Positions 1,833 through 21,299 of a stretch of 27,469 nt of DNA are shown one piece after another. How positions within the stretch are numbered: the stretch's first letter is position 1; the number at the start of each line of letters is the position of its first letter. The DNA comes from Planctomycetota bacterium (GTDB taxonomy: Bacteria > Planctomycetota > UBA11346). Made by a program: the position numbers and the translations under genes. The notes under the pieces were generated by a model that saw only the letters and a program-made list of their open reading frames with translations, had not been told where the DNA came from and made no database searches. Location: the NCBI GenBank assembly GCA_044353645.1, contig JBILBP010000001.1, positions 1-27,469 of the forward strand, given 5' to 3'.

Positions 1833-1956
1833 TGGGGACAGAGGCCTCCTTGCAGTCAGGTCGATAGGGGCGCGATGGACGAAGGGGTGTCCGTCACGAC
1901 GCTTGGTTGCCAATAGCGGTAATGCATGTTCCAGAAAACGAATTCAGGGCTTAGGC

Positions 1957-3339
1957 TTGATCTCCATTCATAACAAAATCCGAACCTTGATTCTCAGCCC
2001 GATTGCCTTGGCGGCGATGCTCGGGCGTCTGATTCAGGGACTGGGATGGGTGGCAGTCATTCCCTTGTTGGCAACGCATCTGAGTGCGGCGGAGCTCGGA
2101 TTCTATTATACGTTTGGGAGTCTCGCTGCGCTCCAGGTATTTGTGGAATTAGGACTGACCGGGGTGGTGGTTCAATCCTTGGCGCACGAAGTTGCCCATT
2201 TGCATTTCGGTAAATCGGGTGCCGTCTGGCTTTGGGAAGGACCGTTTGGTCACAAGTCGCGGATGATGGCAATACTTCATTTTGTGCAGTGGTGGTTCGG
2301 AATTGCCGGTTCGGTGGCGATCATTGCCCTGGGCGCGGGTGGCCTCTGGTTCATGCATACGGTTGAGCGGGAGCATGTGACGGGAGTCGAATGGCTGCAT
2401 CCGTGGTTGGCGATGGCAGTCCTTAGCGGCGGGGTCGTATGGTCGGCTGGGGTGATGTCGGTTCTTGAGGGCATGGGCAGGATTGGTCAAGTGACGATGA
2501 TTCGATTGATCGCCGCCATGATTGGGTTGTTGGCGCTTTCCGTTTCATTGCTGCTGGGGGCTGGACTGTGGTCGGCGGTCATTGGCCAAGGGTCGGTCAT
2601 GTTGGTCGGCTTGGTAACAGGCCTGTGCTATTTGTGGAGGCCTTGGCAAGCCATGCGGGGCACAGCCCGCGACCCTGCCTATCGCTGGCGTACGGAGATA
2701 TGGCCCTTTCAATGGCGAATCGCGCTTTCGTGGATGTGCGGCTGGTTGATTTTCCAGGCTATGACACCGGCCATGTTGAGGGTCTCCGGGGCAGAGGCGG
2801 CCGGCAGGTTCGGTGTCGCTCTGCAGATCGCTAATGGGATCCAGACCATAGCTTTGGTGTGGGTCCAGTTGCGAGTGCCGACATGGGGCATGATGGTTGC
2901 ACATGCTGATTGGACCTCGCTCGATCGGGATTTCTGGAAGACGGTTTTCATTTCCATCGCCTGCAGTGTGATCGGAGTTTTTTTACTGGCTATCTGCATC
3001 GTTTATCAGCAGAAGCATCATCTTGATTTTACGTCTCGGGTTCCACCGCTACTCACGCTGATCCCGTTGTTGGGTGTGGCGGTAGTCAATCAGTGGATAT
3101 TCGCTACCGCTGCGTACTTACGCGCACATAAACGAGAGCCATTTCTGATTGTATCAATTTTGGCGGCCGCATGCATGTTGCTTGCCATGCAGATTCCGTG
3201 GCTTGTTCGCGAGTCGACCTTGGCCTGGGTTTACGCAGCGGTATCGGTAGGCTTAGGGGGGATTTGGGGGACTTTGATCTGGTATCGTTGCCGAGGTTCC
3301 TGGCATGTATGCCCTGACTCCAAGTCGCCTGAGCCTTAG
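1957..3339 (+). CDS. wzx: O-unit/polysaccharide flippase (Wzx-like, MOP superfamily)
   Basis: About 460 aa with many hydrophobic segments. It has flippase-type motifs (ELGFYYTFGSLAALQVFVELGLTGVVVQSLAHE; WPFQWRIALSWMCG; AAYLRAHKREPF) and heads a glycosyltransferase cassette. The start is uncertain: the GTG at 1774 overlaps the upstream gene and adds a hydrophilic leader, so TTG 1957 or ATG 2017 is more likely. Confidence 0.82.
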   Translation: MISIHNKIRTLILSPIALAAMLGRLIQGLGWVAVIPLLATHLSAAELGFYYTFGSLAALQVFVELGLTGVVVQSLAHEVAHLHFGKSGAVWLWEGPFGHKSRMMAILHFVQWWFGIAGSVAIIALGAGGLWFMHTVEREHVTGVEWLHPWLAMAVLSGGVVWSAGVMSVLEGMGRIGQVTMIRLIAAMIGLLALSVSLLLGAGLWSAVIGQGSVMLVGLVTGLCYLWRPWQAMRGTARDPAYRWRTEIWPFQWRIALSWMCGWLIFQAMTPAMLRVSGAEAAGRFGVALQIANGIQTIALVWVQLRVPTWGMMVAHADWTSLDRDFWKTVFISIACSVIGVFLLAICIVYQQKHHLDFTSRVPPLLTLIPLLGVAVVNQWIFATAAYLRAHKREPFLIVSILAAACMLLAMQIPWLVRESTLAWVYAAVSVGLGGIWGTLIWYRCRGSWHVCPDSKSPEP

Positions 3340-3404
3340 AATCCCGACTTTGCCCATGGCATTGCAACGATTCTCTCAATAATAGCCACGGAAAATGAAT
3401 CAGC

Positions 3405-5012
3405 ATGAAGCTTAGTATTCTCATCCCGACGCGCAATCGAGCGCGGTATCTGGCAAAGCTGTTGTCATCGGTTGCAATGGTCTCAGGCGACTTCGAATTC
3501 GTAATCTGCGACAATGCCTCCGTCGATCTGACGGCGAAAGTGTGCGAGTATTACGCTCAAAAATTTAATATACGTTATCAATATTTCCGTGACCTGGTGC
3601 CGGCAGGTGAGAATATATTGCGTGGAATGGCAATGGTCCAAGGCGATCACGTATGGATCATGGGTGATGATGATTTCATAAACCCGGAATTCCTCAGTGA
3701 ATATCTGGTCAGCCGGATCTGCCGCTGCGTGATCATGCCGCTTGCTGCCGACAAGCATTTGCAGCTTCAGGCCGATTGTGCGGATCAGGATCGATCCTCC
3801 GCACCGCTTTTGCCGCAAGTGCGCTTCGAATCGGCGTCAGCGGGTGCTGTATTCGAGAAGCTCGGGACCTGGATCACCTATCTGGGTGCGTTTATCTACG
3901 ATCGCCGGGAGCTCCTTGCCGGGTTGGAGGTGCATCTTGCTCCGGGAAAAATCCATGAGCTTTCCTTTGCTTATTTGAATATCGATATCATCAGTGAAGC
4001 ACCTTCGCTTCAGATGGTCTCCAATGCGATCGTTTACCGTGGCGACAACAGCGGTGGCTATTCCATGTTTGCAACGTGGGTTGGTCGCTTCTTCGACCTT
4101 TTGGAATATGCCCAAAGCAAGAAGATACCGGCGGTCGTCGTTGACCGTGTCAGGGTGGAGCACGAACAGAGATTTTTGCCGGCGATGGCAGTGAGCAGGC
4201 ATCTGGGTAGGGCTTTTTGTGAAGAATGCAGGATCGGGGCATTATGGTCTTCACCGCTGCGCGTGAAGACCAGGATCTGCTTGTGGGGCATCGCATTCGT
4301 CATGCGCATAATGCGGGTCGATCTCTCGCTCATGTGGGCAAGTGCTATCCGTTTGCGGCAACTATTGGCCAGTGACGGCCTGCTGGGGGCTGTGAGCTTG
4401 ACGTTTAAACATCTTTCTGCTGTCGGACGCGCATTCAGCCTGCGGTTGGCAGGTCTGCGATTGGCTTCGATTGGCGTCGAGTTCCGTATAAAGGGAAGGC
4501 GGCATATCCGCATCGGTAAATCATCGTCATTCGGTAGGCGCGTATGGCTTGAAGCAATAGCCAATCATCGTCGCAGCATCTATTCGCCCAAGATCAGCAT
4601 CGGAAGCGGGGTTTCTTTCAACGACGATGTCCATGTCGCGGCTGCAAGTGCCGTGAGTATCGGCGATGACTGCCTGTTGGGTTCGCGAATCATCGTGACC
4701 GACCACAACCATGGATCATACAGCCCAGTGCATGAATCCGATCCGCTGTCTCCCCCTTCAGAAAGAGCCTTGGTCGCTACTCCGGTGCACATCGGCGCGC
4801 GCACGTGGATCGGTGATGGGGTGGTCATCCTGCCCGGTACCATTATCGGCAGCGGCTCGGTGATCGGGGCGAACTCCGTGGTGAGGGGTCATTTTCCCGA
4901 AAATTCAGTGATCGTCGGCAGCCCGGCGAAGATGGTGAAAAGATACAGCTTCTTGACAGCGACATGGATGGCATCGGCAGGATTTCAGGATTTGAAGTGG
5001 GATGATCAATGA
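3405..5012 (+). CDS. Fusion: GT2 glycosyltransferase (RfbV/abequosyltransferase-like) plus C-terminal hexapeptide-repeat (LbH) O-acetyltransferase (WbbJ-like)
   Basis: The N-terminus is a GT-A fold (SILIPTRNR, ICDNAS, WIMGDDD). From about aa 300 it shows LbH acetyltransferase motifs (NDDVHVAAASAVSIGDDCLLGSRIIVTDHNHG, IGARTWIGDGVVILPGTIIGSGSVIGANSVV, GSPAK). There is no stop codon between the two parts. Confidence 0.85.
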   Translation: MKLSILIPTRNRARYLAKLLSSVAMVSGDFEFVICDNASVDLTAKVCEYYAQKFNIRYQYFRDLVPAGENILRGMAMVQGDHVWIMGDDDFINPEFLSEYLVSRICRCVIMPLAADKHLQLQADCADQDRSSAPLLPQVRFESASAGAVFEKLGTWITYLGAFIYDRRELLAGLEVHLAPGKIHELSFAYLNIDIISEAPSLQMVSNAIVYRGDNSGGYSMFATWVGRFFDLLEYAQSKKIPAVVVDRVRVEHEQRFLPAMAVSRHLGRAFCEECRIGALWSSPLRVKTRICLWGIAFVMRIMRVDLSLMWASAIRLRQLLASDGLLGAVSLTFKHLSAVGRAFSLRLAGLRLASIGVEFRIKGRRHIRIGKSSSFGRRVWLEAIANHRRSIYSPKISIGSGVSFNDDVHVAAASAVSIGDDCLLGSRIIVTDHNHGSYSPVHESDPLSPPSERALVATPVHIGARTWIGDGVVILPGTIIGSGSVIGANSVVRGHFPENSVIVGSPAKMVKRYSFLTATWMASAGFQDLKWDDQ

Positions 5013-6067
5013 TGATCGAACGTACTGCTTTGGCTCCTCTCACGATTACGGTGGCGATTCCGGCATATAATCGGGCTGCGGTACTGCCTGAATTGCTGGA
5101 TAGCATACTGGCGCAAGACAGCATTCCGGACGAGATCATCATCTGCGAAGACATGTCGCGTGAGCGAACGGCTATCCGTGAGGTCTGTGATCAGTACCGG
5201 AGCCTATTCGAGGCCCGGGGAATGCGGTTTTCACTATTCGAAAACGCGGAGAATTTCGGTTACGACAAGAATGTCAGAGAGGTGATCTCCCGTTCCAGTT
5301 GTGAATATGTCATTCTAATGGGCAATGATGACCGCATGTTCTCGAACTGCATTCAGCATGTGCGCGCGGCTTTGCTGGAATATCCGACGGAAGCACGCCC
5401 GGGTTTTGTGGGCAGGGCATATGCGAAATTCGATGAAAGAGGCAGGCGCAAGGGCCTGACGCGAATATGCAAGAATAATAGATTCCATTTGCCCGGAGCT
5501 GCCGAGGCCGGGACGATTTTTTCTTATTGTGCATTCGTAAGTGGTATCGTCTTCAATGTCGAGCGCGCCAAGGCCGCGCAGACTGCTATTTTCGACGGCA
5601 GTCTCTACTATCAGTACTATTTAGCGCTCTCCCTATCGAGAGTCAGTTCGGTGCTTTATCTTTCGACCCCGATCATCGAGGGGAGGATGAATAACCCCCC
5701 GGATTTTGGTAATGCCAATAATGAGAAGAAGATTTTCACGCCCGGTGGTTATGCAGCGACGGCGAGGATCGCGATGTGGTCGGGACTACTGACTATCACC
5801 AGGCACGTGTGCAGATCGTTGGCTGGGGACCAGGAAAAAAGCCTCCGACGAATGCTGGATAATCGATATTTCTTCCATATTGCCGAGATGGTCTCATTGC
5901 GTGGGCGTGGTGAATTGATCACGCTTTTCAGAGGTTTTTTCGGGCTTGGGCTCATGCGTACGCCTCTGTCTCTGGTGATCTTTTCCTTCGCGATAGTTTT
6001 CGGGAGAATGTCGAGGGTGGCATTTTCGGCTACGCGTTCGATCGCCAGTAATTTTTCGGGGTTTTAG
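5009..6067 (+). CDS. Glycosyltransferase family 2
   Basis: Motifs VAIPAYNR, IIICED, NFGYDKN, ILMGNDD. The start overlaps the upstream stop (ATGATG at 5009-5014). Sugar specificity cannot be determined. Confidence 0.88.
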   Translation: MMIERTALAPLTITVAIPAYNRAAVLPELLDSILAQDSIPDEIIICEDMSRERTAIREVCDQYRSLFEARGMRFSLFENAENFGYDKNVREVISRSSCEYVILMGNDDRMFSNCIQHVRAALLEYPTEARPGFVGRAYAKFDERGRRKGLTRICKNNRFHLPGAAEAGTIFSYCAFVSGIVFNVERAKAAQTAIFDGSLYYQYYLALSLSRVSSVLYLSTPIIEGRMNNPPDFGNANNEKKIFTPGGYAATARIAMWSGLLTITRHVCRSLAGDQEKSLRRMLDNRYFFHIAEMVSLRGRGELITLFRGFFGLGLMRTPLSLVIFSFAIVFGRMSRVAFSATRSIASNFSGF

Positions 6068-6161
6068 GATGTCTCTGGAGATCAATGCTCTTCGCGGTGA
6101 TTCTTCTCGACGTCACTTCGTCGGGGTATTGGCCGTCACTTCCAGTCAGACGTGGTGGTAG

Positions 6162-7289
6162 ATGCGCATCGCTATCGTGCATGAATGGTTCACTCAATGG
6201 TCCGGCTCGGAACAGGTGCTCGAGCAGATGCTGGCCTGTTTTCCGGAAGCAGATCTTTTTGCCGTTACCAGCAGTCCTGATCGGCAGGGAGCGCAGGTTC
6301 TAGGTGAGAGGAGGATCCGCACGTCATTTGTGCAGAAGTTGCCATTCGGACGCCGATTACCTCAGTTGTGGCTGCCAATTCTCCCATTGGCCATTGAACA
6401 ACTCGATCTTCGAGGCTATGATCTGGTCATTTCGAATAGTCATTGTGTGGCCAAGGGTGTCATCTGCAGCCCGTACACCCGTCATCTAGCCTATGTCCAT
6501 TCACCGATGCGCTATGCCTGGGATTTGCGCCAGGAATATGCCGCCAAATTGCCCTTCGTGGTTCGGTCGATATGGAACTATGCAATGCATCGATTGCGGT
6601 CTTGGGATGCGCTTTCTGCGATGCGTCCTGATGCCTTGGCTTGCAATAGCCATTATATCGCCTCGCGAATCCGTCATGCCTGGAATCGCCCATCCACGGT
6701 CATCTACCCGCCGGTCGATGTCGCGTCCTTCTCCCCCGGTGGGGGTGAGCGGGACGATGTTTATATTTCGGTTTCGCGGATGGTTCCCTATAAGCGTATG
6801 GTGGTCATCGCCCGTGCCTTCTCGCGGATGCCCAAGCGGACCCTCCACATGATTGGTACCGGCAGTGAGTATCGCGAGATCCAGGAGATCGCTGCCAAGC
6901 ACAAGAACATTCGATTGCTGGGGCATGTCTCGCGTGCGGATCTGATCTACCGGCTCGGTCGGGCGCGGGCATTCATATTCGCCGCCGAAGAGGATTTCGG
7001 TATTGCTCCGGTCGAAGCCCAGGCATGTGGGACGCCGGTAATCGCCTTTGCCCGCGGAGGTGCCACCGAATCGGTCATACCGGGAGTGACCGGCTTGTTT
7101 TTCCATGAACAATCGGAGTCCGCTATCATTGAGGCGGTGGATGAATTTGAGCAAAGGGCATCATTCGATCCGGATGAATGCCGAAAAAATGCCGAGGCAT
7201 TTTCAATTGTGATGTTCAGGGAGCGATTCCTTGCCTGGGTTTCGGCGAATGCACCTCTATCGGAAGTCGCGCAGTCGCATCGGCGCTAG
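6162..7289 (+). CDS. Glycosyltransferase family 4, WbaZ-like (probable mannosyltransferase)
   Basis: RIAIVHEWF...GSEQVLE, YVHSPMRYAWD, SRMVPYKR and EEDFGIAPVEAQACGTPVIAF (GT-B E-x7-E motif). These match the WbaZ-type GT4 pattern. Confidence 0.9.
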   Translation: MRIAIVHEWFTQWSGSEQVLEQMLACFPEADLFAVTSSPDRQGAQVLGERRIRTSFVQKLPFGRRLPQLWLPILPLAIEQLDLRGYDLVISNSHCVAKGVICSPYTRHLAYVHSPMRYAWDLRQEYAAKLPFVVRSIWNYAMHRLRSWDALSAMRPDALACNSHYIASRIRHAWNRPSTVIYPPVDVASFSPGGGERDDVYISVSRMVPYKRMVVIARAFSRMPKRTLHMIGTGSEYREIQEIAAKHKNIRLLGHVSRADLIYRLGRARAFIFAAEEDFGIAPVEAQACGTPVIAFARGGATESVIPGVTGLFFHEQSESAIIEAVDEFEQRASFDPDECRKNAEAFSIVMFRERFLAWVSANAPLSEVAQSHRR

Positions 7290-7319
7290 GTCACCACTTA
7301 TTATGGATGTTTCCATTAA

Positions 7320-8747
7320 ATGAAAATGTCTGGTTCGGTATTGGCGCGCCTGTTACCACGGTCTGCTTCGGCTGGATTGCTTCTAACATCCGACTTATTG
7401 TCCACTTGCTTAGCAAACCGGTTCGCAGTGACGATGCGTGATTGGCTAGGCGGGGCGGTGGTCTTGCATGCGCATTTCGTTTTATGGCCATTTTTGATCA
7501 TATTTGCCGTGGTGTTTGCCTGGCAGCGTCTGTATCAGGTGGCGGGGCTTAATCCCGCCAATGAAATTCGTAGTGTCGTATGGAGCTCGAGTCTAGTGTT
7601 CCTGCTGGTCATGGGCGCGGCGTTCCTCGTCCAGTCGGAAAACCAGATATCTCGAGGCGCACTCGTGCTTGGTGCCGTGGGAACCATCTTGTTGGTGCTG
7701 TGTTCGCGCTACCTACTTCGGGGCTGGTTGTCGCGATATGACTGGTGGGGTGAACCTGTATTGGTATTGGGTGCGGGTTTGACCGGTCAATCTGTGGTGC
7801 GTCGATTGCGCGAAGCTCGTTATCTGGGGTGGCGGCCGGTGGCCATTTTGGATGACGACGTGCAGCATCACGGACGGGAGTATTCGGGAGTACCGGTATT
7901 GGGGTGCCTTGCGGACGCACCGATCCTCGCCGGTTCCATGCATCTGCGTAGTGTCATCGTGGCCATGCCCGGGGTGTCGATGGAGCGCCTGAGAATCCTT
8001 GAGCAGCAATGTTCGAAAGTTTTTCCTCAGGTGATAATTCTCCCGAGCTTTTGTGGTTATGCTTCTTTGTGGGTGCGTCCACAGGATCTCGGCGGCATCC
8101 TCGGACTGGAAGTGCAGCGTAATTTACTGAGGGTTTGGCCGCGCTTTGGTAAGCGTTTCTTCGATCTGTTCTGTTGTGTCTGGGGTCTATCGGTACTCAT
8201 CCCCTTGACCATCTTGATCGCCTTCCTGATCAAGGTCTCTTCACCCGGGCCGGTGTTCTACAGCCAAGAGCGCATCGGCCGCAATGGACGTTCTTTCAGA
8301 GCCTGGAAATTTAGATCGATGGTTAAGGATGCTGACACCGTGCTGCAGCATTATTTTCATGCCCATCCCGAATTGCGTGCGGAATGGGAGCGCGATCATA
8401 AATTGCGTGATGATCCACGGGTGACCTTCATCGGTGGCTTTCTGCGCAAAACGAGTTTGGATGAGTTGCCGCAGGTATGGAATGTCTTCCGTGGGGATAT
8501 GAGCTTGGTCGGGCCAAGGCCGATTGTTCATGCGGAAATTGCCAAATATCACGATCTATTTGATCTGTATGTCCATGTCCGTCCGGGAATAAGTGGTCTT
8601 TGGCAGGTTTCTGGGCGTAATGATACGACTTATGATGAACGGGTGATGCTCGATGTCTCCTATGTGCGCAACTGGTCGATCTGGTTGGACGCGTGGATTC
8701 TCATACGTACGATTCGGGTGGTCATCTTGGGTAGGGGGGCGTATTGA
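7320..8747 (+). CDS. wbaP: Undecaprenyl-phosphate hexose-1-phosphate transferase (WbaP-like initiating enzyme)
   Basis: N-terminal TM helices and a central Rossmann-like segment (LVLGAGLTG...LDDD). The C-terminal phosphoglycosyl transferase domain has [40 protein letters not shown] and [13 protein letters not shown]. Gal versus Glc specificity is not provable from sequence. Confidence 0.9.
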
Positions 8748-8903
8748 AGCGAAACTTGCACCAGATGCTCAGGCATGAACGCTCGCTCCAAGATCGCTTG
8801 GAATTTCAGTCTTTCGAATACTGCCGAGATGGAGACGGCTCCTCCGGTTGAGTGACGACAGGGTTATGATGCTGGCCGCTCAACCTTGCTGCTCAATCAA
8901 ACT

Positions 8904-8941
8904 CCGCTTAGGGCTGACGACCTCCGGCGTCAGCCTGGCGG
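8904..8941. other. GC-rich inverted repeat/hairpin in the wbaP-rfbF spacer
   Basis: GGCTGACG (8912-8919) pairs perfectly with CGTCAGCC (8928-8935), and the stem is extended by CCGC (8904-8907)/GCGG (8938-8941). There is no plus-strand T-tract, so its function is unknown. Confidence 0.5.
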
Positions 8942-9158
8942 AACGTATCTATCTGACCGCCACCCCTTGCGTCCTCTGCGTCTCGTCGATTTTTTCGAGT
9001 GGCCTTCTCCGCCACGGAGGGTCGTAGGGTTGCAAAGTCGCTGTTGGAGCCCACGCAAAATGGTCTCATACACTTTCCCTCGTGGCCCTTGGTAACAGTC
9101 GATGAGTGGCCAAGCCTCCTTGTCCATCATCCATCCCCGCCTAACCTTCTTCGCACCT

Positions 9159-9932
9159 ATGAAAGCAGTCATCCTCGCCGGCGGTATGGGCACGCGGATC
9201 AGCGAAGAATCGTCCGTGCGTCCCAAGCCGATGATCGAAATCGGGGGGAAGCCGATCCTTTGGCACATCTTGAAGGGATACGGACAGCATGGCATTACCG
9301 ATTTCATCATTTGCTGCGGCTATAAGGGCTACGTCATCAAGGAGTACTTCGCCAACTACTTCCTGCATATGTCCGATGTGACCTTTGATATGCAGCATAA
9401 TCAGATGGTAGTCCATCAGCGTCACGCTGAGCCGTGGCGGGTGACCTTGGTCGATACCGGTGAGCAGACCATGACCGGTGGGCGCATCCGTCGCATCCTG
9501 CCCTATGTTAAGGATGAGGAGGCATTCTGCCTGACCTACGGCGATGGGGTGGGCGATGTCGATATCTCCGCCCTGGTCGCCTTCCATCGGGCGCAGAAGA
9601 CCTTGTGCACGCTGACCGCGGTTCAGCCGCCGGGGCGTTTCGGGGCCTTGGCGATCGATCAGCATCAGCGCATCGTCTCCTTCCAAGAGAAGCCACAGGG
9701 CGATGGCAGCTGGATCAATGGCGGTTTCTTCGTCTGTTCTCCGCAGGTCATCGGGCGCATTGCCGGGGATGGCACTATCTGGGAGCGCGAACCGATGGAA
9801 TCACTGGCGCGTGACGGACAGATGAGCGCCTTCCACCATCGGGGGTTCTGGCAGCCCATGGACACCCTGCGCGACAAGCTGTTGCTCGAGGACTTGTGGG
9901 CCAAGGACCAGGCTCCTTGGAAGGTCTGGTAA
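9159..9932 (+). CDS. rfbF: Glucose-1-phosphate cytidylyltransferase
   Basis: [75 protein letters not shown]. The start is placed at the ATG of MKAVIL (9159), not 9102. Confidence 0.97.
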
Positions 9933-11035
9933 TGTTCGGCGGCGTCTTCAAGGGCCGGCGGGTCCTGCTCACTGGCCACACCGGTTTCAAAGGTTCCTGG
10001 CTGAGCCAATGGCTCATCGAGCTGGGAGCCGAGGTCCATGGCCTGTCGTTGGCGCCCGATACCGCTCCGGCGCTGTTCGAGGTGCTCGGCTTGGAGCAGC
10101 GCCTGGCCTCGCACCGCCTCGCGGACGTGCGCGATATGGCGGCGGTGCAGGCGATATGCGTCGCCATACAGCCCGAGGTGGTCTTCCACATGGCGGCGCA
10201 GCCTTTGGTGCGCCTGTCCTATCGCGAGCCCGCCGCTACCTGGGCGACCAACGTACAAGGTACCATCCATGTCCTGGAGGCGGTGCGTCGTCTTGCCTGT
10301 GTGCGTGCCTGCGTGGTGGTGACCTCTGATAAATGCTATGAGAACCGTGAGCAGCTGTGGGGGTATCGCGAAGCTGATGCGATGGGTGGCCATGACCCGT
10401 ATTCGTCCTCGAAGGGCGCTGCGGAGATGGCCGTTGCCAGCTGGCGGCGGTCCTTCTTCCACGATCCGAGCGGTGCCCGGCTGGCATCGGGACGAGCCGG
10501 GAATGTCATTGGCGGCGGCGACTGGTCAGCCGACCGCATCGTCGTCGACTTCGTCCGCGCGATGGTCGCCGGACAGCCGCTGTCCCTGCGCAATCCCGGC
10601 GCGATTCGCCCATGGCAGCATGTGCTGGAGCCCCTCTCGGGCTACTTGCTGCTGGCCGCCAAGCTCTTGCATGCAGAAGGCGCGGGCTTTGCCGAAGGTT
10701 GGAACTTCGGCCCCGGCGATGCCAGCGTGGCCACGGTCAAGGAGCTTGCCGACCTCTTGGTGCGTGCATGGGGCTCGGGCTCGGTCGAGGCTCCACTGCA
10801 GATCGGGCAACCCCATGAAGCCCATCTGCTCAAGCTGGATGTGAGCAAGGCCCGCGCCCTGCTGGGCTGGACAGGCATCTGGGACGTGCGGCGGACGGTT
10901 GCCGAGACCGTTCACTGGTACAAGGCCCACCATCAGGGGAGCGAGGATCTGTCCGCCCTGACCCGTCGTCAAATCGCCGATTATGCCCATGATGCCCGCC
11001 GTGCTGGCCTGGCCTGGGCTGGCGATGCCGGTTAG
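9932..11035 (+). CDS. rfbG: CDP-glucose 4,6-dehydratase
   Basis: LLTGHTGFKGSWL, HMAAQPLVRLSY, TSDKCYEN, DPYSSSKG, RAGNVIGGGDW, RPWQHVLEPLSGY, WNFGP. It is coupled to rfbF by a TAATG overlap (9930-9934). Confidence 0.97.
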   Translation: MFGGVFKGRRVLLTGHTGFKGSWLSQWLIELGAEVHGLSLAPDTAPALFEVLGLEQRLASHRLADVRDMAAVQAICVAIQPEVVFHMAAQPLVRLSYREPAATWATNVQGTIHVLEAVRRLACVRACVVVTSDKCYENREQLWGYREADAMGGHDPYSSSKGAAEMAVASWRRSFFHDPSGARLASGRAGNVIGGGDWSADRIVVDFVRAMVAGQPLSLRNPGAIRPWQHVLEPLSGYLLLAAKLLHAEGAGFAEGWNFGPGDASVATVKELADLLVRAWGSGSVEAPLQIGQPHEAHLLKLDVSKARALLGWTGIWDVRRTVAETVHWYKAHHQGSEDLSALTRRQIADYAHDARRAGLAWAGDAG

Positions 11036-11104
11036 GCTTCTTTCGGGGGCCTTGGCGGCTTCCCTTGCCCGGGTTTTTAAACTCAACGAGATGCCAATAT
11101 TTCC

Positions 11105-12484
11105 ATGACTGATCGCCTTGCACAACTCCGCGCCGAGATCCTCGTCAAGACCCGGGAGCTCATCAGCCTCCGTGAGGTTCCGCAGCCATTCATCCCCGGA
11201 CAGACGACGGTCCCCTATGCCGGTCGCGTCTACGATGCCGACGAGGTCGAGGCTGGCGTCGACAGCATGCTCGATTTCTGGCTGACCTTGGGCAAGCATG
11301 GTGATGCGTTCGAGAAGGAATTTGCAGCGCTCCTCGGGGTGCGTTCGTGCATCCTGACCAACAGCGGAAGTTCAGGCAATCTCTTGGCCTTCGCCGCGCT
11401 CACCAGTTACAAGCTCGGGGAGCGGCGGATCCGCCCAGGCGATGAAGTCATCACCGCCGCCGCCGGCTTCCCGACGACCGTGTCGCCGATCATCCAGAAT
11501 GGCTGCATCCCGGTCTTCGTCGATGTCGATCCGAGCACCATGGGGCCGCGTGTCGATCAGCTCGAAGATGCCTATGTCCGGGGCCGGACCAAGGCGGTGA
11601 TGATCGCCCACGCCCTCGGCAATCCATTCGATCTCGGTGAGATCACGCGCTTTTGCCGCGACAAGGGGCTATGGCTGATCGAAGACAACTGCGATAGTCT
11701 CGGCAGCCGCTATGACGGCCAGCTGACCGGTACCTTTGGCGATCTTTCCACGCAGTCCTTTTACCCGCCGCATCATCTCACGCTCGGCGAAGGCGGCTCG
11801 ATCAATGTCGTGCGCGATCCCAAATTGCGGGTGATCGTCGAAAGTTACCGTGACTGGGGCCGCGACTGCTGGTGCCCCTCGGGCAAAGACGATACCTGCC
11901 GCAAGCGCTTCGAATGGCAGCTCGGCGAGCTGCCCAAGGGCTACGATCACAAGTACATCTACAGTCACATCGGCTGGAATCTCAAGCCGCTCGATCCGCA
12001 GGCCGCCATCGGCCGTCAGCAGCTGAAGAAATTGCCGGGTTTCATCCAGGCGCGGCGGGACAATTGGGAAGCTCTGCGGCGCGGTCTGAGCGGGCTCGAG
12101 GACCGTCTCGAATTCATGCTCCCGACCCACGCTACCGCCTGGTCGCCGTCGGGTTTCTCGTGGCAGCCCGGCAAGCCGGTGGTCGAGCCGAGCTGGTTCG
12201 GCTTCATGATGCTGGTGAAGGGTGGCCCGCAGGCCCGCACCGCCTTGGCCAGGGCCCTCGATACGGCCCGCATCGGCAATCGCATGTTCTTCGGCGGCAA
12301 TCTCGTACGCCAGCCGGCCTTCGTCCAGCTCAAGGCCGATACCTTGGGCAGCGGCTACCGGGTGATCGGCGATCTCGCGGGTGCCGATCGGGTCATGAAC
12401 GAATCGTTGTTCGTCGGTACCTACCCCGGTCTGCGTCCAGAGCATATCGCGCACATTGTCAGCACCGTACGCGAGGCTTGCTGA
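11105..12484 (+). CDS. rfbH: CDP-4-keto-6-deoxyglucose 3-dehydratase (E1; RfbH/DdhC/AscC), PMP- and [2Fe-2S]-dependent
   Basis: NSGSSGNLLA, AAGFPTTV, AHALGNPF, EDNCDSLG. SFYPPHH carries His in place of the aminotransferase Lys. WGRDCWC-x7-C is the Fe-S motif, followed by YDHKYIYSHIG. Confidence 0.95.
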   Translation: MTDRLAQLRAEILVKTRELISLREVPQPFIPGQTTVPYAGRVYDADEVEAGVDSMLDFWLTLGKHGDAFEKEFAALLGVRSCILTNSGSSGNLLAFAALTSYKLGERRIRPGDEVITAAAGFPTTVSPIIQNGCIPVFVDVDPSTMGPRVDQLEDAYVRGRTKAVMIAHALGNPFDLGEITRFCRDKGLWLIEDNCDSLGSRYDGQLTGTFGDLSTQSFYPPHHLTLGEGGSINVVRDPKLRVIVESYRDWGRDCWCPSGKDDTCRKRFEWQLGELPKGYDHKYIYSHIGWNLKPLDPQAAIGRQQLKKLPGFIQARRDNWEALRRGLSGLEDRLEFMLPTHATAWSPSGFSWQPGKPVVEPSWFGFMMLVKGGPQARTALARALDTARIGNRMFFGGNLVRQPAFVQLKADTLGSGYRVIGDLAGADRVMNESLFVGTYPGLRPEHIAHIVSTVREAC

Positions 12485-12541
12485 GCGCATATGACTTCTT
12501 TCGCCCCCGCTCATCCCGATCATTCGGGGCAGTGAGATGTC

Positions 12542-13429
12542 ATGAGCAAGTATCCGATTGCGATCCTGGGATCAGGCAACATTGGCACTGATCTGCTGGT
12601 GAAATGCCAGCGTTCGGAAGTCTTGGAATGCGTGGCCTTCGTTGGCCGCAGCTTCACTTCCTCAGGGATGGTTAAGGCTCAATCCCTGGGCGTTACCTGT
12701 TCGGATCAGAGCATACACTACATCAGAAAGCATCAGCGCGACATCAAGCTGGTGTTCGATGCGACTTCCGCCAAAGATCACCACGTTCACGCGCCAATCC
12801 TCAAAGACCTGGGCATCACCGTCGTCGATCTGACGCCGGCGCATATCGGCCCGATGTGCGTTCCAGGAGTGAACATGAGCGCCTCGCTCGGCGAGGGAAA
12901 CCTCAACATGGTCACCTGCGGTGGACAGGCCTCGATCCCCATCGCCTACGCTATCGGTCAGACCCAGGGCGCGGTTGAATACATCGAGGTCGTCTCGAGC
13001 ATCGCCTCGCGCAGCGCCGGCCCGGCGACCCGTGCCAACCTTGACGAATACATTGCTACCACCGAGGCCGGTATCCGGCTGTTCTCGGGAGCGGCCAACG
13101 CCAAGGCGATCCTCAACCTCAATCCGGCGGTCCCCTGTATCGACATGCAGACGACGATCTTCGCCAAGGTCGCCCGGCCGGATCTGCCCGCTCTCCAGAG
13201 GGCTGTGACAGAGATGGTGGTGCGCATAGCCGCATATGTTCCTGGTTATCAGCTGCTGATGGCTCCGCGACTGGACGACGGGCGTCTGGTGGTCATGGTC
13301 AAGGTCCGCGGGCTGGGCGACTATCTGCCTGAATACGCGGGGAACCTCGACATCATCAATTGCGCGGCGATCGCCATTGCCGAAGAGCACGCACGCCACT
13401 ATCGGCATCGGCAAGGAGCCACCCCATGA
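12542..13429 (+). CDS. dmpF: Acetaldehyde dehydrogenase (acylating), DmpF/MhpF family
   Basis: [34 protein letters not shown] (catalytic Cys), [29 protein letters not shown]. Confidence 0.94.
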
Positions 13430-14457
13430 CCGAGCGTATCCTCATCTGCGATCCCAGTCTGCGGGATGGCAACCATGCCGTCGCGCATCAGCTCAGCCAC
13501 GAACAGGTGCGCGCTTATTGCCTAGCTGCGGATCGGGCCGGGATCCCCATCGTCGAAGTCGGCCATGGCAATGGTCTGGGGGCATCATCGCTGCAGGTCG
13601 GTCTGGCGAAGACCGCGGATGCGGTGATGTTGAAAACTGCCCGCGAGGCATTGCGTAACAGCAAGCTCGGCATTCATGTGATTCCGGGTTTCGCGACCAT
13701 CGAACGCGACCTCAAGCCGGCCATCGACTATGGCGTGGATGTGTTCCGGATCGCCGCCCATTGCACCGAGGCCGATATCACCGAACGCCATATCCGTTTC
13801 TGCCGCAACCAGGGCAAGACGGTTTTTGGCGTCTTGATGATGTCGCACATGGCCGATGTCCCCACGCTCTGCGATGAGGCGCGCAAGATGGAAGGGTACG
13901 GTGCCGAAGCGATCATCATCATGGACTCCTCGGGCACCTATCTGCCTGAAGATGTCAGCGAACGAATCGCAGCCCTGCGTGCCGGGCTGAGCATACCTGT
14001 CGGTTTCCATGGTCATAATAATCTGGGCATGGCGGTGGCCAATTCAGTGGCGGCGGTCCGTGCCGGCGCCTCCATATTGGATGCCTGCGCGCGTGGTTTT
14101 GGCGCAGGTGCGGGCAATACCCAGATCGAGGCCTTGGTGGCGGTGCTCGAACGGATGGGCATTCCGACCGGTATCGACCTCTATGCCCTGCTCGATGCCG
14201 CTGACCTTGCCGAAGCGCAGTTGATGAAGGAGGTGCCGGCGATCAGATCGCTCAGCATCGTCAGTGGCTTGTCCGGGGTCTTCTCGGGCTTCGCCAAGCC
14301 AGTGCAGCGCATTGCTGCCGAAACCGGCGTCGACGCCCGTGACATCTTCTTCGAACTCGGGCGGCGCAAGGTCGTAGCCGGCCAGGAGGATCTCATCCTG
14401 GAGGTGGCCCAGGAGCTGGCCTGTCATCAGCGCGCCGCAAGCGGAGTCAGGAGATGA
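13426..14457 (+). CDS. dmpG: 4-hydroxy-2-oxovalerate aldolase, DmpG/MhpE family
   Basis: [34 protein letters not shown] (metal-binding HxH), GAGAGN, and the C-terminal communication domain ([15 protein letters not shown]). The start at 13426 is an ATGA overlap with dmpF. Confidence 0.94.
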
Positions 14458-15488
14458 AAAGCACGCGGGCGCAGATTGTCAGCGGCGATTGCGAACGGGT
14501 CTATGCAAGTGCCGGCCAATCACTGCAGGGCCTGGCCGGGGCCTCGATCACGGTCACCGGCGGTACCGGCTTCATGGGTGCGTGGATCCTCGAGCTGATC
14601 GCCTACCTCAATGCCCGTCAGGGCATGGGCATAACGGTGACGGCGCTGGCCCGGGACAGCGGACGGTTGATCGCCGCCATGCCGCACATCGCTCATTTGC
14701 CGTGGCTTTGCCTGCAGCGCAACGACGTGCGTACCCTCGGCGAAATGCCGAAGAATACTTCGCATATCATCCATGCGGCCGGGGATCCAGATTCACGCAG
14801 CCATGCGTCGCGACCGGTGGAGACCATGCGGGTGATCGCTGAAGGGGCTGCGGCGGTGATCGCCGCCGCTCAGCGTCTCGGCCATCTGCGGCAGATCCTC
14901 AATGTCAGTTCGGGGAATATCCCCCATACCGGAACGGCTCTGCCGGGTGATCTGGCACGCACGGTCAGCGCCCCGTATGTCGAAGCCAAACGCTATGCGG
15001 AGACGCTTTTCCAGGCCGCCCGTAGTGAATTGCGTCTGCCGGTGGTGCAGGTTCGCCCGTACAGCTTTCTCGGCCCCTATCAGCAGGCGGATGCACCGTG
15101 GGCGGCGAATGCATTTCTGCGTGATGCCATGTGCGGACGGGCGATCCGCATCCTCGGAGATGGTGAAAGTATCCGTACGGTCATGTATGGGGCCGACCTA
15201 GCGATGTGGATGCTGGTGATGTTGGAGCAAGGCCGGGATGGCATGACCTATAGCGTCGGCGCGGATACCGGTCACAGTATGAAGTCCATTGCCCAAGCGG
15301 TCGCCGACCAGTTTCATCCCCGGCCGGCAATCCTCCTTAATTGCGCTCTCGCCGGTGCACCCACGAAGACCTGCTATGTGCCAGATCTTTCGGCGGTGCG
15401 TCAGGCGCTCAACCTGCGTACCTATACTGATCTGGCCACCGCCGTGGCCCATTACCAGTTGTGGCTTGAAGCCCCGGCGGACGCCTGA
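14454..15488 (+). CDS. NAD(P)-dependent epimerase/dehydratase/reductase (extended SDR)
   Basis: VTGGTGFMG (GxxGxxG), IIHAAG, NVSSG, YVEAK (YxxxK), RPYSFLGP. It has an ATGA overlap with dmpG and AGGAG immediately upstream. Confidence 0.87.
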
Positions 15489-15521
15489 CGGCCCCGTCGA
15501 TCGATCAATCCGAGTGAACCT

Positions 15522-17333
15522 ATGAAAATCAAATGCAGCGATCTGTTGGCGAACTTCCTGGCCGAGAAACAGGTCACGACTACCTTCGGCATCACCGGTT
15601 CAGCGATTGCGCACGTCTTTGATTCGATCGGCAACCTCGGTAAGACGGAGATCATCTGCGTCCATCATGAACAGGCGGCATGCATGGCCGCACAGGGTTA
15701 TTTCAGGACGCGGGGCACGCCGACGGTGGCCATCGTCACCGCTGGTGGCGGGTCGAGCAATGCCATCACCGGTGTCTTGTCGGCATGGATGGATTCGCTG
15801 CCGTTGCTGGTCATCTCCGGCAATGAAAACGCCAAGTTTACCTATGAAGACAACCCACTGCGCATCTGGGGCGTGCAGGGCTACGATTCGACGGCGATGG
15901 TGCAGAAGATCACCAAGCATGTGATTCGTGTGATGGACCCGACTATGATCATCTATGAGCTGGAGAAAGCCTGGCAGATCGCTACCAGTGGGCGGCCGGG
16001 GCCGGTGTGGATTGATATCCCGATGAGCGTCCAGGGTAGCTTCGTTGAGGAGGCCGAAATAAAGCGCTATGCTCCAGTCTCCGTGCCGCAGACTGCAGTC
16101 ACGCAGATCCGCCAGCTCGACCTCGTCGCGGATCTGCTGCGTCAGGCCAAGCGACCGGTCCTGTGGCTGGGCAACGGCATCCGCCATGCCGGATTTGTAC
16201 CGCAATTGGCGGACTTCCTGGCGCGGATCGAAGTGCCTAGCCTGGTAACCTGGGCGATGATCGATGCCCTCGATCCCCACCATCCTATGAATTTCGGACG
16301 TGCCGGTGTCTATGGTCAGCGCTCGGCGAACTTCGTTTTGCAGAATGCCGACCTGCTCATCACCATCGGCACGCGCATGCCGCTCCAGCAGGTGGGTTAC
16401 GATATCAGCGAACTGGCGCGGACGGCGAAGATCGTGGTCGTTGATATCGATGAAATAGAGCTGGCAAAATATGCTCAACGCTATGACGTTTCGATTTGCG
16501 CCGATGCTGGCGAATTCATGCGCGGCCTCATCGCGACCCTCGGGCGCCAGGCCGCCTCGCCGGAGTGGCTCGCGTCCTGCAATGACTTCCGCAGCCGCTA
16601 TCCGATCATCGGACCGGAGCACAACGACATCGGTGACTTCATCAATTCCTACCGCTTCATGGAGCGCCTGAATCGGCATTTCCACGAGGATCAGGTTGTA
16701 TGTACCGATGCCGGCACGGCGTTGCTGTCTGGGCATCAGGTACTGCAGATGAAACCTGGGCAGATGTTGTTCACCTCGCTCGGCCTCGGGGAGATGGGCT
16801 ATGGCCTGCCAGCAGCTATCGGTGCGGCATTCGGTCGTGGACGCAAGGAGGTCTTGTGTCTTAATTGCGACGGAGGGATGATGATGAATTTGCAAGAGCT
16901 GCAGACCATCGTCCACCATCGGCTGCCGGTGAAGATCATCATCTTCAACAATGACGGTTATCTGATGATCAAGCACACCCAGAATGCGATGTTCCATGGA
17001 CGTCGCTATGGCGTGGATCAGCGTTCAGGGGTGAGCTGCCCCGATTTCAGCAAGTTGGCCGCGGCCTTCGGAATCAAGGCTTTGCAGATCAATGTTTGGG
17101 ATGATGTGGATCCGGTCCTGACGCAGCTGCAGCAGGATCAGGGGCCGGTCATCTGCGAAGTCCGTATGCATCCCGATCAGATGATGCTTCCTAAGCTCTC
17201 GCTGGCGATGCGTGCAGACGGCAGCCTGGTCTCACCGCCGTTGGAGGATCTCAGCCCGTTGCTCCCGCGTGCCGAATTGGAGCGCAACATGCTGATCGGC
17301 ATGCACGAGAAATCCAGGCAGCTCAAACCTTGA
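15522..17333 (+). CDS. Thiamine-diphosphate-dependent enzyme (acetolactate-synthase-like fold; YerE-like carboligase candidate)
   Basis: HHEQAACMAA (catalytic Glu), TAGGGSSNAITG, GRPGPVWIDIP, GLGEMGYGLPAAIG, and the ThDP/Mg motif CDGG-x-NN. The fold assignment is strong; the YerE-like role is inferred from context. Confidence 0.9.
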   Translation: MKIKCSDLLANFLAEKQVTTTFGITGSAIAHVFDSIGNLGKTEIICVHHEQAACMAAQGYFRTRGTPTVAIVTAGGGSSNAITGVLSAWMDSLPLLVISGNENAKFTYEDNPLRIWGVQGYDSTAMVQKITKHVIRVMDPTMIIYELEKAWQIATSGRPGPVWIDIPMSVQGSFVEEAEIKRYAPVSVPQTAVTQIRQLDLVADLLRQAKRPVLWLGNGIRHAGFVPQLADFLARIEVPSLVTWAMIDALDPHHPMNFGRAGVYGQRSANFVLQNADLLITIGTRMPLQQVGYDISELARTAKIVVVDIDEIELAKYAQRYDVSICADAGEFMRGLIATLGRQAASPEWLASCNDFRSRYPIIGPEHNDIGDFINSYRFMERLNRHFHEDQVVCTDAGTALLSGHQVLQMKPGQMLFTSLGLGEMGYGLPAAIGAAFGRGRKEVLCLNCDGGMMMNLQELQTIVHHRLPVKIIIFNNDGYLMIKHTQNAMFHGRRYGVDQRSGVSCPDFSKLAAAFGIKALQINVWDDVDPVLTQLQQDQGPVICEVRMHPDQMMLPKLSLAMRADGSLVSPPLEDLSPLLPRAELERNMLIGMHEKSRQLKP

Positions 17334-17355
17334 TGATGGTGGATCGGGCAACCTG

Positions 17356-18333
17356 ATGCAAATCGCACTGCTGGGATCGACAAGTCATGTGGCCAAGGCG
17401 ACCATGGAGTACCTGCGTCGGCGGGCGACGCTCACCCATGTCGCCCGCGACCCCCAGCGTGTTCGCGTCCACCTCGAGCGATTCGGTGGTGACGATGTCG
17501 CGGAGCACCAACGCATCTTGAGTTTCGAGGAGTTTGCTGCCTCTCAGATGGTGTTCGATGCGATCATCAATTGCGTGGGTTTCGGAACCCCCGAAAAGGT
17601 TGCCGCCGCCGGCTTAGACCTGTATCGGCTCACCGAGCGCATGGATGAATTATGCCTGTCCTATCTTGAGAGGAATCCGCAGACGGTATTCGTCAATTTT
17701 TCAAGCGGTGCTGTATATGGGACGGCGCATGAGGCCTTGATTGGACCCGCTGCTGTTTTTACCATGGAGCTGAATCAGCCCCGCGAATCGGACCACTACC
17801 GTCTCGCTAAATTGCATTGCGAGCGCAAGCACCGTGCTTGGCAATCTGCTTCGATTATCGATCTCCGGTTGTTCGGCTTCTTTTCCAAGCATATCGACTT
17901 GTCGTCACGATATCTCATCTGCGAGATCGTGCGCAGCATCCGTGACAGGAAGATCTTCGTCACCGATGACAGCGACATCATCAGGGATTTCGTTCATCCA
18001 CGGGATCTTGCTGAGCTGATGTTGCGTGCGGCTGCGAAAAAAGGGCTCAATATCGCTCTGGATGTGTTCAGTAGTGCCTATCTGAAAAAATCTGAATTGC
18101 TCGCCGTGGCCAAGCAAAAGTTCGGCTTGCAGGTCGAGATCGTATCCTCGCCGCTGAACATTTCTCCTACCGGATCAAAGAGTTTCTATGCCAGCGGAAA
18201 CTTTGCGGCCACCGGAAAGATCGGCTATAATCCGCAGTGGTCTTCGATCGAGGCGGTGATCGACCAGATATCGCAGACGCTCGCACCGAGTACGCGGACC
18301 TCGCGGCGCGGGACCGATGGCGGGAATCAGTAG
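17356..18333 (+). CDS. NAD(P)-dependent epimerase/dehydratase family protein (divergent SDR)
   Basis: Degenerate nucleotide-binding loop (LLGSTSHVA), IINCVGFG, NFSSGAVYG, YRLAK (YxxxK), LRLFGFF, RDFVHPRDL. Confidence 0.8.
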   Translation: MQIALLGSTSHVAKATMEYLRRRATLTHVARDPQRVRVHLERFGGDDVAEHQRILSFEEFAASQMVFDAIINCVGFGTPEKVAAAGLDLYRLTERMDELCLSYLERNPQTVFVNFSSGAVYGTAHEALIGPAAVFTMELNQPRESDHYRLAKLHCERKHRAWQSASIIDLRLFGFFSKHIDLSSRYLICEIVRSIRDRKIFVTDDSDIIRDFVHPRDLAELMLRAAAKKGLNIALDVFSSAYLKKSELLAVAKQKFGLQVEIVSSPLNISPTGSKSFYASGNFAATGKIGYNPQWSSIEAVIDQISQTLAPSTRTSRRGTDGGNQ

Positions 18334-20660: not shown

Positions 20661-21299
20661 ATGTCACTTCAGCCAGCCGCCGCTGACCAACCGGCATCCC
20701 CATCAAGAATATCGCGCGATGAACGCTTCGGCCTTTTGCGACAGCGCGGAGCGGTGGTGTGGTTGACCGGGCTCTCCGGTGCCGGCAAGACCACGATTGC
20801 CAGGGCCTGCGAACGGCAGCTGATCGAGGCCGGGCGTGTTGCCTATGTGCTCGATGGTGACGAGGTCCGTCAAGGATTGTCGCGTGATCTTGGATTCAGT
20901 CCGACCGATCGTCACGAACAGATCCGTCGTGTGGGGGAAGTGGCACGATTATTCGCTGACGCCGGGGTGATTGTCATCGTCGCCTTGATCTCGCCGTATG
21001 CGGCCGATCGTGCCGCCGCCCGCGCGTGTGCGGTGGACTTGACCTTTTTGGAAGTTTTCGTCGATGCTTCCATGAGCCACTGCGAGGCCCGGGACACCAA
21101 GGGTCTCTATCGCCAAGCCCGCAATGGGACGATTGGCAACCTTACTGGCCTAGGCTCGCCATACGAGGTGCCGACGGCGCCCGATCTGCGACTGAGTACG
21201 GGAGAGCAGTCAGTTGCAGAATCACTCGCGGCACTGTGGCAGTTGTTGGGCGCACGGGGTTTGCTGCTGATGCATGAATCAACTCCATCGTCGCCTTAG
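20661..21299 (+). CDS. cysC: Adenylyl-sulfate (APS) kinase
   Basis: WLTGLSGAGKTT (P-loop), LDGDEVRQGL, RRVGEVARLFADAG, LISPY, RDTKGLY, TGLGSPYEVP. Confidence 0.95.
   Translation: MSLQPAAADQPASPSRISRDERFGLLRQRGAVVWLTGLSGAGKTTIARACERQLIEAGRVAYVLDGDEVRQGLSRDLGFSPTDRHEQIRRVGEVARLFADAGVIVIVALISPYAADRAAARACAVDLTFLEVFVDASMSHCEARDTKGLYRQARNGTIGNLTGLGSPYEVPTAPDLRLSTGEQSVAESLAALWQLLGARGLLLMHESTPSSP

Follow-up and report, generated by a model that had tools for sequence, protein, structure and literature searches.

A cassette of eight genes in a freshwater Planctomycetota bacterium (assembly GCA_044353645.1, contig JBILBP010000001.1, of which 27,469 nucleotides were analyzed and are referred to here as the window) probably directs the synthesis of an erwiniose-type cytidine diphosphate (CDP)-3,6-dideoxyhexose that bears a four-carbon side chain on C-4. 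The predicted product would be a building block of a Wzx/Wzy-assembled surface glycan. The cassette, on the + strand at positions 9159–18333, encodes RfbF, RfbG, RfbH, a DmpF-like acetaldehyde dehydrogenase, a DmpG-like pyruvate aldolase, a short-chain dehydrogenase/reductase (SDR1), a thiamine diphosphate (ThDP)-dependent carboligase, and a second reductase (SDR2), in this order. A first-pass annotation of the same DNA had described this co-directional run and three stop/start overlaps, and both hold. All eight genes were placed by their NCBIfam or Pfam scores (Table 1), and the overlaps read TAATG for rfbF/rfbG (9930–9934) and ATGA for both dmpF/dmpG (13426–13429) and dmpG/SDR1 (14454–14457). 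An AGGAG-like site lies just upstream of each ATGA, and dmpF and dmpG are translationally coupled.

On the basis of their family assignment, RfbF and RfbG would generate CDP-4-keto-6-deoxy-D-glucose, from which RfbH (E1) would remove the 3-hydroxyl group with electrons presumably delivered by a reductase encoded outside the window. The DmpF-like enzyme would convert acetyl-CoA to acetaldehyde, and the DmpG-like aldolase would combine acetaldehyde with pyruvate to yield 4-hydroxy-2-oxopentanoate (HOPA), with the 4R enantiomer predicted from residues His84 and Phe286. The ThDP enzyme, which is of the JanthE type, would then decarboxylate HOPA and add the resulting 3-hydroxybutanoyl unit to the C4 ketone, leaving a tertiary alcohol. 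This carboligation is proposed from the gene context, the biochemistry of ErwE, and the in vitro acceptance of HOPA by JanthE. Lastly, one of the two SDRs may reduce the C1′ ketone of the side chain to a 1,3-dihydroxybutyl branch.

The pathway idea is not new. It was published in 2022 by Steitz et al., and partly tested, for the erwiniose of the potato pathogen Pectobacterium atrosepticum (PMC9306805), and more than 200 YerE-like clusters were surveyed in silico in 2024 (Krug et al., as cited in the 2025 review PMC12247030). In the published scheme, the acetaldehyde dehydrogenase ErwJ and the BphI-like aldolase ErwI are proposed to form HOPA, whose C4 unit is added by the ThDP enzyme ErwE to CDP-4-keto-3,6-dideoxyglucose before ErwF reduces the side chain (PMC9306805). 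In assays with a ketone analogue as the acceptor, ErwE used HOPA, preferred its R enantiomer, and rejected pyruvate (PMC9306805). Every named Erw protein has a homologue in the window (Table 1). The first-pass interpretation, that DmpFG supply a hydroxy-2-oxoacid for ThDP-dependent addition to C4 followed by reduction, coincides with this scheme and is supported by these homologues.

The P. atrosepticum locus (L095), which was reached via an ErwF-like protein, encodes a WbaP-like protein, E3, RfbF, RfbG, RfbH, an HpcH/HpaI aldolase, ErwE, ErwF, ErwJ, ErwI, a 351-residue SDR, a 439-residue protein with no Pfam match, a family 2 glycosyltransferase (GT2), and an LbH acetyltransferase, in this order. 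It therefore comprises the same families as the window, including both SDRs, within a WbaP-initiated glycan locus, and the same chemistry is proposed for the two. The WbaP-like proteins are 36% identical. The presence of two reductase-like genes, which had been read as a departure from known systems, is thus shared with P. atrosepticum. The differences from the published example lie elsewhere. The window has neither E3 nor the HpcH/HpaI aldolase, its gene order is dmpF-dmpG-SDR1-ThDP-SDR2 rather than E-F-J-I-SDR, its carboligase belongs to a lineage with a CDG motif where ErwE has GDG, and its host belongs to another phylum.

Two other systems follow a related logic. The yersiniose A pathway of Yersinia pseudotuberculosis (YerE/YerF) likewise employs a ThDP-dependent acylation of a C4 ketone, with reduction proposed as the next step, yet YerE attaches a C2 branch taken from pyruvate, and no aldolase/dehydrogenase pair accompanies it. 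The mycobacterial caryophyllose and gastriose clusters (MMAR_2331/2332 and MygI/MyGE) share the overall scheme, in which an aldolase-made hydroxy-2-oxoacid is passed to a ThDP carboligase and then a reductase acts (PMC9306805). These clusters, likened to the window by description only, rely on HpcH/citrate-lyase-type aldolases and longer C6/C7 donors.

The Aldolase and Its Dehydrogenase Partner

A distinctive feature of the cassette aldolase is a pair of active site residues. In an alignment to DmpG (PDB 1nvm), His84 of the window enzyme occupies the position of Leu88 (Leu87 in BphI), while Phe286 replaces Tyr291 (Tyr290 in BphI). This His/Phe signature is found in 75/75 cassette aldolases, whereas Leu and Tyr occupy the same positions in DmpG, in HsaF (4jn6), and in the catabolic paralogues that two of these genomes also encode. 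BphI is strictly 4S-specific; the Y290F substitution abolishes this control, and the L87N/Y290F and L87W/Y290F variants become 4R-specific (PMC3962088). Because the natural His/Phe pair falls at these stereo-determining positions, (4R)-HOPA is predicted as the product, in agreement with the preference of ErwE for (R)-HOPA. In nature, the invariant pair seems to correspond to the substitutions that were engineered to make BphI 4R-specific, and it may serve as a guide for enzymology.

In other respects, the window pair resembles the catabolic DmpFG and BphIJ complexes, sharing their fold, the DmpG communication domain, the metal and pyruvate site, and the cysteine motif of the dehydrogenase. The DmpF-like protein conserves the sequence TCGGQA, which we take to hold the active site cysteine of DmpF, when compared with PDB 7z3s, and 1nvm_B was also matched. 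The identity between the window and catabolic pairs is 40–47%. They also differ in the two residues described above, in the glycan-synthesis context of the window, and in the proposed flux, which is reversed.

A purely catabolic role was considered for this pair and rejected. The host assembly is a metagenome-assembled genome (MAG; 2.83 Mb, 423 contigs, 77% complete) whose sole DmpG is the copy in the cassette. Catabolic DmpG paralogues score 560–590 bits against TIGR03217, in contrast to 360–390 bits for the cassette type, and carry the other stereo-determining residues. This bears on a broader explanation, in which DmpFG are aromatic meta-cleavage enzymes merely placed in the locus and the ThDP protein would be IlvB, an anabolic acetolactate synthase. 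The scores of both DmpF and DmpG above the NCBIfam equivalog cut-offs are in its favor, as are public automatic names, which call homologues of the ThDP enzyme “acetolactate synthase large subunit”. However, no aromatic-catabolism or meta-cleavage genes were found in the window by Pfam/NCBIfam annotation, and together with the properties of the ThDP enzyme described below, these data effectively refute it.

The ThDP-Dependent Carboligase

The ThDP enzyme is clearly distinct from IlvB. Its TIGR00118 score of 375 bits lies below the cut-off of 538, and a true IlvB (732 bits) is encoded elsewhere in the genome, on contig C12. It matches JanthE (PDB 8rph) with 762 bits over residues 2–601 but E. 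coli acetohydroxyacid synthase (AHAS) I with only 274 bits. In a quick maximum-likelihood tree that was rooted with the genome's own IlvB and also included ErwE and a second Pseudomonas ThDP paralogue as outside sequences, a long, fully supported branch separates the window clade from IlvB. The possibility of grouping with anabolic IlvB, raised in the first-pass annotation as a check, is thereby settled in favor of a separate clade.

In the window enzyme, the GDG triad is replaced by CDG (LNCDGGMMM), and a JanthE-like C-terminal extension is present. CDG is common to 78/80 clade members that match the motif pattern, whereas ErwE, the genome's IlvB, and the second Pseudomonas paralogue harbor GDG. 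The JanthE pocket residues V121, Y268, Y297, H494, and K567 are conserved, while the window enzyme has Q, A, and M in place of P293, S498, and F564, respectively. JanthE, from Janthinobacterium sp. HH01 (Lanza et al. 2024, as cited in PMC12247030 and PMC12188165), has been studied as a biocatalyst, and neither of the two citing papers names the sugar that it forms in the cell. It couples 2-oxoacid donors to ketones and accepts HOPA with benzaldehyde, as well as pyruvate and other 2-oxoacids (PMC12188165).

The closest relative of the window enzyme is a verrucomicrobial protein (67% identity). The match to PDB 5ahk, presumably the structure of the P. protegens YerE homologue, reaches only 256 bits. 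ErwE itself finds JanthE as its nearest solved structure (368 bits), and the two have a related C-terminal tail. In the tree, ErwE joins the base of the window clade with 99% SH-aLRT support, although the branches are long and the placement is unsure. The enzyme is YerE-like but is not an orthologue of ErwE or YerE. It is of the JanthE type, and an ErwE-like function is inferred for it.

Some genomes combine the different types of carboligase. Two Pseudomonas loci (L062:8206-9909 with L062:9986-11818, and L071) encode tandem ThDP carboligases, one a 567-residue GDG type and the other a JanthE type. In a Capsulimonadaceae locus (L023:12079-14600), a JanthE-type enzyme is accompanied by an HpcH aldolase and an ErwE-type enzyme (52% identity to ErwE); the same HpcH–ErwE pair occurs in P. 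atrosepticum (L095:7407-9995).

Distribution of the Module, the Two Reductases, and the Identity of the Product

A scan for relatives, using one genome per species, returned 197 relatives, and 80 loci were kept at 54–67% identity; the exception is L001, which is near-identical to the window. In 74–76/80 related loci, dmpF, dmpG, and SDR1 stand beside the ThDP gene. Of the 53 loci in which the ThDP gene is flanked by 5 kb or more on each side (full-flank loci), 51 carry both dmpF and dmpG, with a median gap of ~1 kb, and 42 encode a true RfbH. SDR1 is encoded in 47 of the 51 that carry dmpFG. Carriers are distributed across 16 phylum labels, including Bacteroidota, Pseudomonadota, Verrucomicrobiota, Armatimonadota, Bdellovibrionota, and Spirochaetota. 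Dozens of unrelated genomes share this gene set in synteny, so the cassette arrangement is not due to chance.

The survey thus shows how widespread and how tightly kept the four-gene module is, and it adds the His/Phe signature of its aldolase and SDR1 as the usual partner; the known chemistry is unchanged. The cassette brings a recently described pathway for surface sugars with long branches to the Planctomycetota, where it is apparently rare; the ThDP gene was found in 2/401 genomes searched from this phylum, i.e., the host and one of four genomes of the same genus. The carriers in many phyla include sequenced strains with culture-collection or strain designations that would be open to chemical analysis, among them Flavobacterium aquidurense DSM 18293 (L027), F. 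hercynium DSM 18292 (L033), Mucilaginibacter pedocola TBZ30 (L064), and Pseudomonas sp. MYb60 (L062), the last with an ErwF-type SDR only and no SDR1.

Variations on the module were also observed. An FkbM-type methyltransferase, which the window lacks, is encoded in or beside the cassette in 18 loci (L044:3676-4614, L035, L060, L063, and 14 more), and in some Bacteroidota its gene separates dmpF from dmpG. Its presence hints at methylated variants of the sugar. L039 and L067 retain only the ErwF-type SDR, and the sister of L067, L045, has dmpFG, such that donor supply seems to switch between close relatives.

The two SDRs of the window are well-preserved enzymes of different types. SDR1 has an invariant GGTGxxG motif, Ser152/153, and Lys179, with Tyr175 being nearly invariant, while Ser116/117, Tyr148, and Lys152 are invariant in SDR2. 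On the basis of its match to ErwF over 312 residues, SDR2 is assigned as a putative ErwF/YerF-type reductase. SDR1, which always adjoins dmpG, is a candidate side-chain ketoreductase or modifier, and it accompanies the module far more often than the ErwF type does; an ErwF-type SDR occurs in 6/53 full-flank loci and both SDRs in 4. That most loci have SDR1 without an ErwF/YerF-type reductase prompts one to ask which reductase acts on the side chain. One tentative answer, which we regard as possible but doubtful, is that the widespread natural unit consists of the His/Phe aldolase, the dehydrogenase, SDR1, and a CDG-motif JanthE-type carboligase, with SDR1 as the usual side-chain ketoreductase. 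Loci with two SDRs, such as those of the window and P. atrosepticum, would then produce a further-modified or C1′-epimeric sugar, and the Planctomycetota glycan would contain a higher branched sugar that is as yet chemically undescribed.

Several observations weigh against the assignment of the product as an erwiniose-type 3,6-dideoxy sugar. ErwE is the one enzyme for which a preference for HOPA and a rejection of pyruvate have been demonstrated (PMC9306805), and the ThDP enzyme of the window shares just 31% identity with it. As JanthE takes pyruvate and other 2-oxoacids, the donor choice of the window enzyme rests on gene context. Close relatives of the ThDP gene in L003 and L039 have no dmpFG within a full flank of 5 kb, and none is present on the shorter contig of L067. 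With respect to the reductases, a search of PDB folds with the SDR1 model (predicted local distance difference test score, pLDDT, of 90.8) found nucleoside diphosphate (NDP)-sugar SDRs as nearest, and the SDR2 model (pLDDT 88.5) best matched the CDP-sugar NADP reductase 8v4h with a template modeling (TM) score of 0.78. Both models are extended SDRs of the NDP-sugar type, and their matches are so similar in quality that they neither indicate a reaction nor single out the C1′ reductase. For yersiniose, side-chain ketoreduction was itself still uncharacterized in 2016 (PMC4753412), and for erwiniose it is no more than a proposal (PMC9306805). Finally, the window encodes no E3, a DdhD/AscD-type Fer2-FAD-NAD reductase, and searches of the 77%-complete genome with a Pseudomonas E3 protein and PF00175 detected none.

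The failure to detect a dedicated E3 bears on the acceptor. RfbF, RfbG, and RfbH all exceed their NCBIfam equivalog cut-offs, and RfbH matches the Y. pseudotuberculosis E1 structure 3bcx with 444 bits, retaining the equivalents of His220 and of Cys193, Cys251, Cys253, and Cys261 in the alignment. With the E1 histidine and all four cysteines in place, RfbH should need an electron donor. The first-pass statement that RfbFGH alone give CDP-4-keto-3,6-dideoxyhexose was therefore incomplete, as 3-deoxygenation is completed by an E3 partner. If no 3-deoxygenation took place, the same HOPA carboligation could act on CDP-4-keto-6-deoxyglucose and yield a 6-deoxy branched sugar. We consider this outcome unlikely. 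Although E3 was detected within the retrieved flanks of only 19/80 related loci (beside rfbF, as in P. atrosepticum), the retention of every E1 hallmark and the conservation of RfbH in most full-flank loci argue that RfbH is used. The incompleteness of the genome also leaves room for a reductase encoded elsewhere. E1-type dehydrases, SpnQ among them, can draw on general ferredoxin/flavodoxin reductases, and in the cassette-bearing genome of the same genus (G166), which encodes four NAD_binding_1 proteins, the one examined is a plain FNR-type reductase beside hisS.

With the 3,6-dideoxy acceptor preferred, the identity of the donor can be weighed in the same manner. The ThDP enzyme might instead use pyruvate, giving a yersiniose-type C2 acetyl branch, with DmpFG serving in acetaldehyde/acetyl-CoA handling or in extension of the branch after its attachment. 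The acceptance of pyruvate by JanthE and the few clade members with no dmpFG nearby are compatible with this alternative, which nevertheless appears very unlikely given the near-obligate synteny of dmpF-dmpG with the ThDP clade and the conserved, cassette-specific active site signature of the aldolase. Class II pyruvate aldolases act on a metal-bound 2-oxoacid, a group absent from an acetyl-branched sugar, which speaks against extension after branching. This type of aldol extension was raised as an alternative by Steitz et al., and the rejection of pyruvate by ErwE argues against it for that enzyme (PMC9306805).

The Surface-Glycan Locus and Its Host

The window is a surface-glycan locus of the Wzx/Wzy type in which 14 genes run co-directionally, the cassette being the distal portion of this series (Table 1). 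A scan for promoters and terminators between 8600 and 18500 found nothing exceeding shuffled sequences. A contig from a Planctomycetota MAG of a lake time series (L001) is 99% identical over the cassette.

Table 1. Features of the window, with protein identities to the corresponding proteins of the P. atrosepticum erwiniose locus. GT, glycosyltransferase; PMP, pyridoxamine phosphate; FAD, flavin adenine dinucleotide; APS, adenosine 5′-phosphosulfate.
Feature	Position	Strand	Family evidence or context	P. atrosepticum counterpart
WbpM-like dehydratase	3–1832	+	Upstream part of window	
Polytopic membrane protein, probable divergent Wzx O-unit flippase	1774–3339	+	No Pfam match	
GT2–LbH acetyltransferase fusion, GT2, GT1, WbaP-like initiating transferase	3405–8747	+	Pfam; glycan assembly genes upstream of cassette	
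rfbF/ddhA, glucose-1-phosphate cytidylyltransferase (forms CDP-glucose)	9159–9932	+	TIGR02623, 454 bits (cut-off 300); ATG at 9159	RfbF, 65%
rfbG/ddhB, CDP-glucose 4,6-dehydratase	9932–11035	+	TIGR02622, 468 bits (cut-off 278)	RfbG, 49%
rfbH/ddhC (E1), PMP/[2Fe-2S] CDP-4-keto-6-deoxyglucose 3-dehydrase	11105–12484	+	NF011936, 626 bits (cut-off 423)	RfbH, 46%
dmpF/erwJ-like, acylating acetaldehyde dehydrogenase	12542–13429	+	TIGR03215, 377 bits (cut-off 282)	ErwJ, 59%
dmpG/erwI-like, class II pyruvate aldolase	13426–14457	+	TIGR03217, 382 bits (cut-off 286)	ErwI, 63%
SDR1, extended NDP-sugar-type SDR	14454–15488	+	Pfam Epimerase; adjoins dmpG	351-residue SDR after erwI, 36%
JanthE-type ThDP/FAD carboligase (YerE-like)	15522–17333	+	Three TPP_enzyme domains (Pfam)	ErwE, 31%
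SDR2, putative ErwF/YerF-type reductase	17356–18333	+	Pfam Epimerase, 59 bits	ErwF, 34%, full length, E 8e-60
fcl and gmd		−	Downstream of cassette	
APS kinase (CysC)	20661–21299	+	Between gmd and GT2	
GT2, then rmlBDCA, Wzy_C-family protein		− (rmlBDCA)	Downstream of cassette, after APS kinase	

The membrane protein near the start of the window is probably a divergent Wzx O-unit flippase. It contains at least eight hydrophobic segments, its Atlas neighbors are named O-unit flippases, and homologues with 27–32% identity are encoded in 19 other cassette loci (e.g., L062:14869-16185 and L016:17025-18395). Across the loci, this Wzx-like protein (20 loci including the window) and a GT2 family of ~316 residues (29 other cassette loci) are mutually exclusive, which suggests two alternative modes of handling the branched sugar.

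A sulfated glycan is conceivable in view of the APS kinase gene, which stands alone within the glycan locus; none of the window genes was recognized as encoding a sulfotransferase. The G+C content is 0.51–0.56 in the glycosyltransferase block (3000–9000) and 0.59–0.66 in the sugar-synthesis cassette (9000–15000). The lower value of the glycosyltransferase block, together with the rarity of the cassette in the phylum, fits a mosaic, horizontally exchanged locus. The GT2 at 3405–5012 (+) is fused to an LbH acetyltransferase in a single open reading frame of 535 residues, whereas in P. atrosepticum the two are encoded by separate adjacent genes (L095:15468-16870), with the LbH parts being 27% identical.

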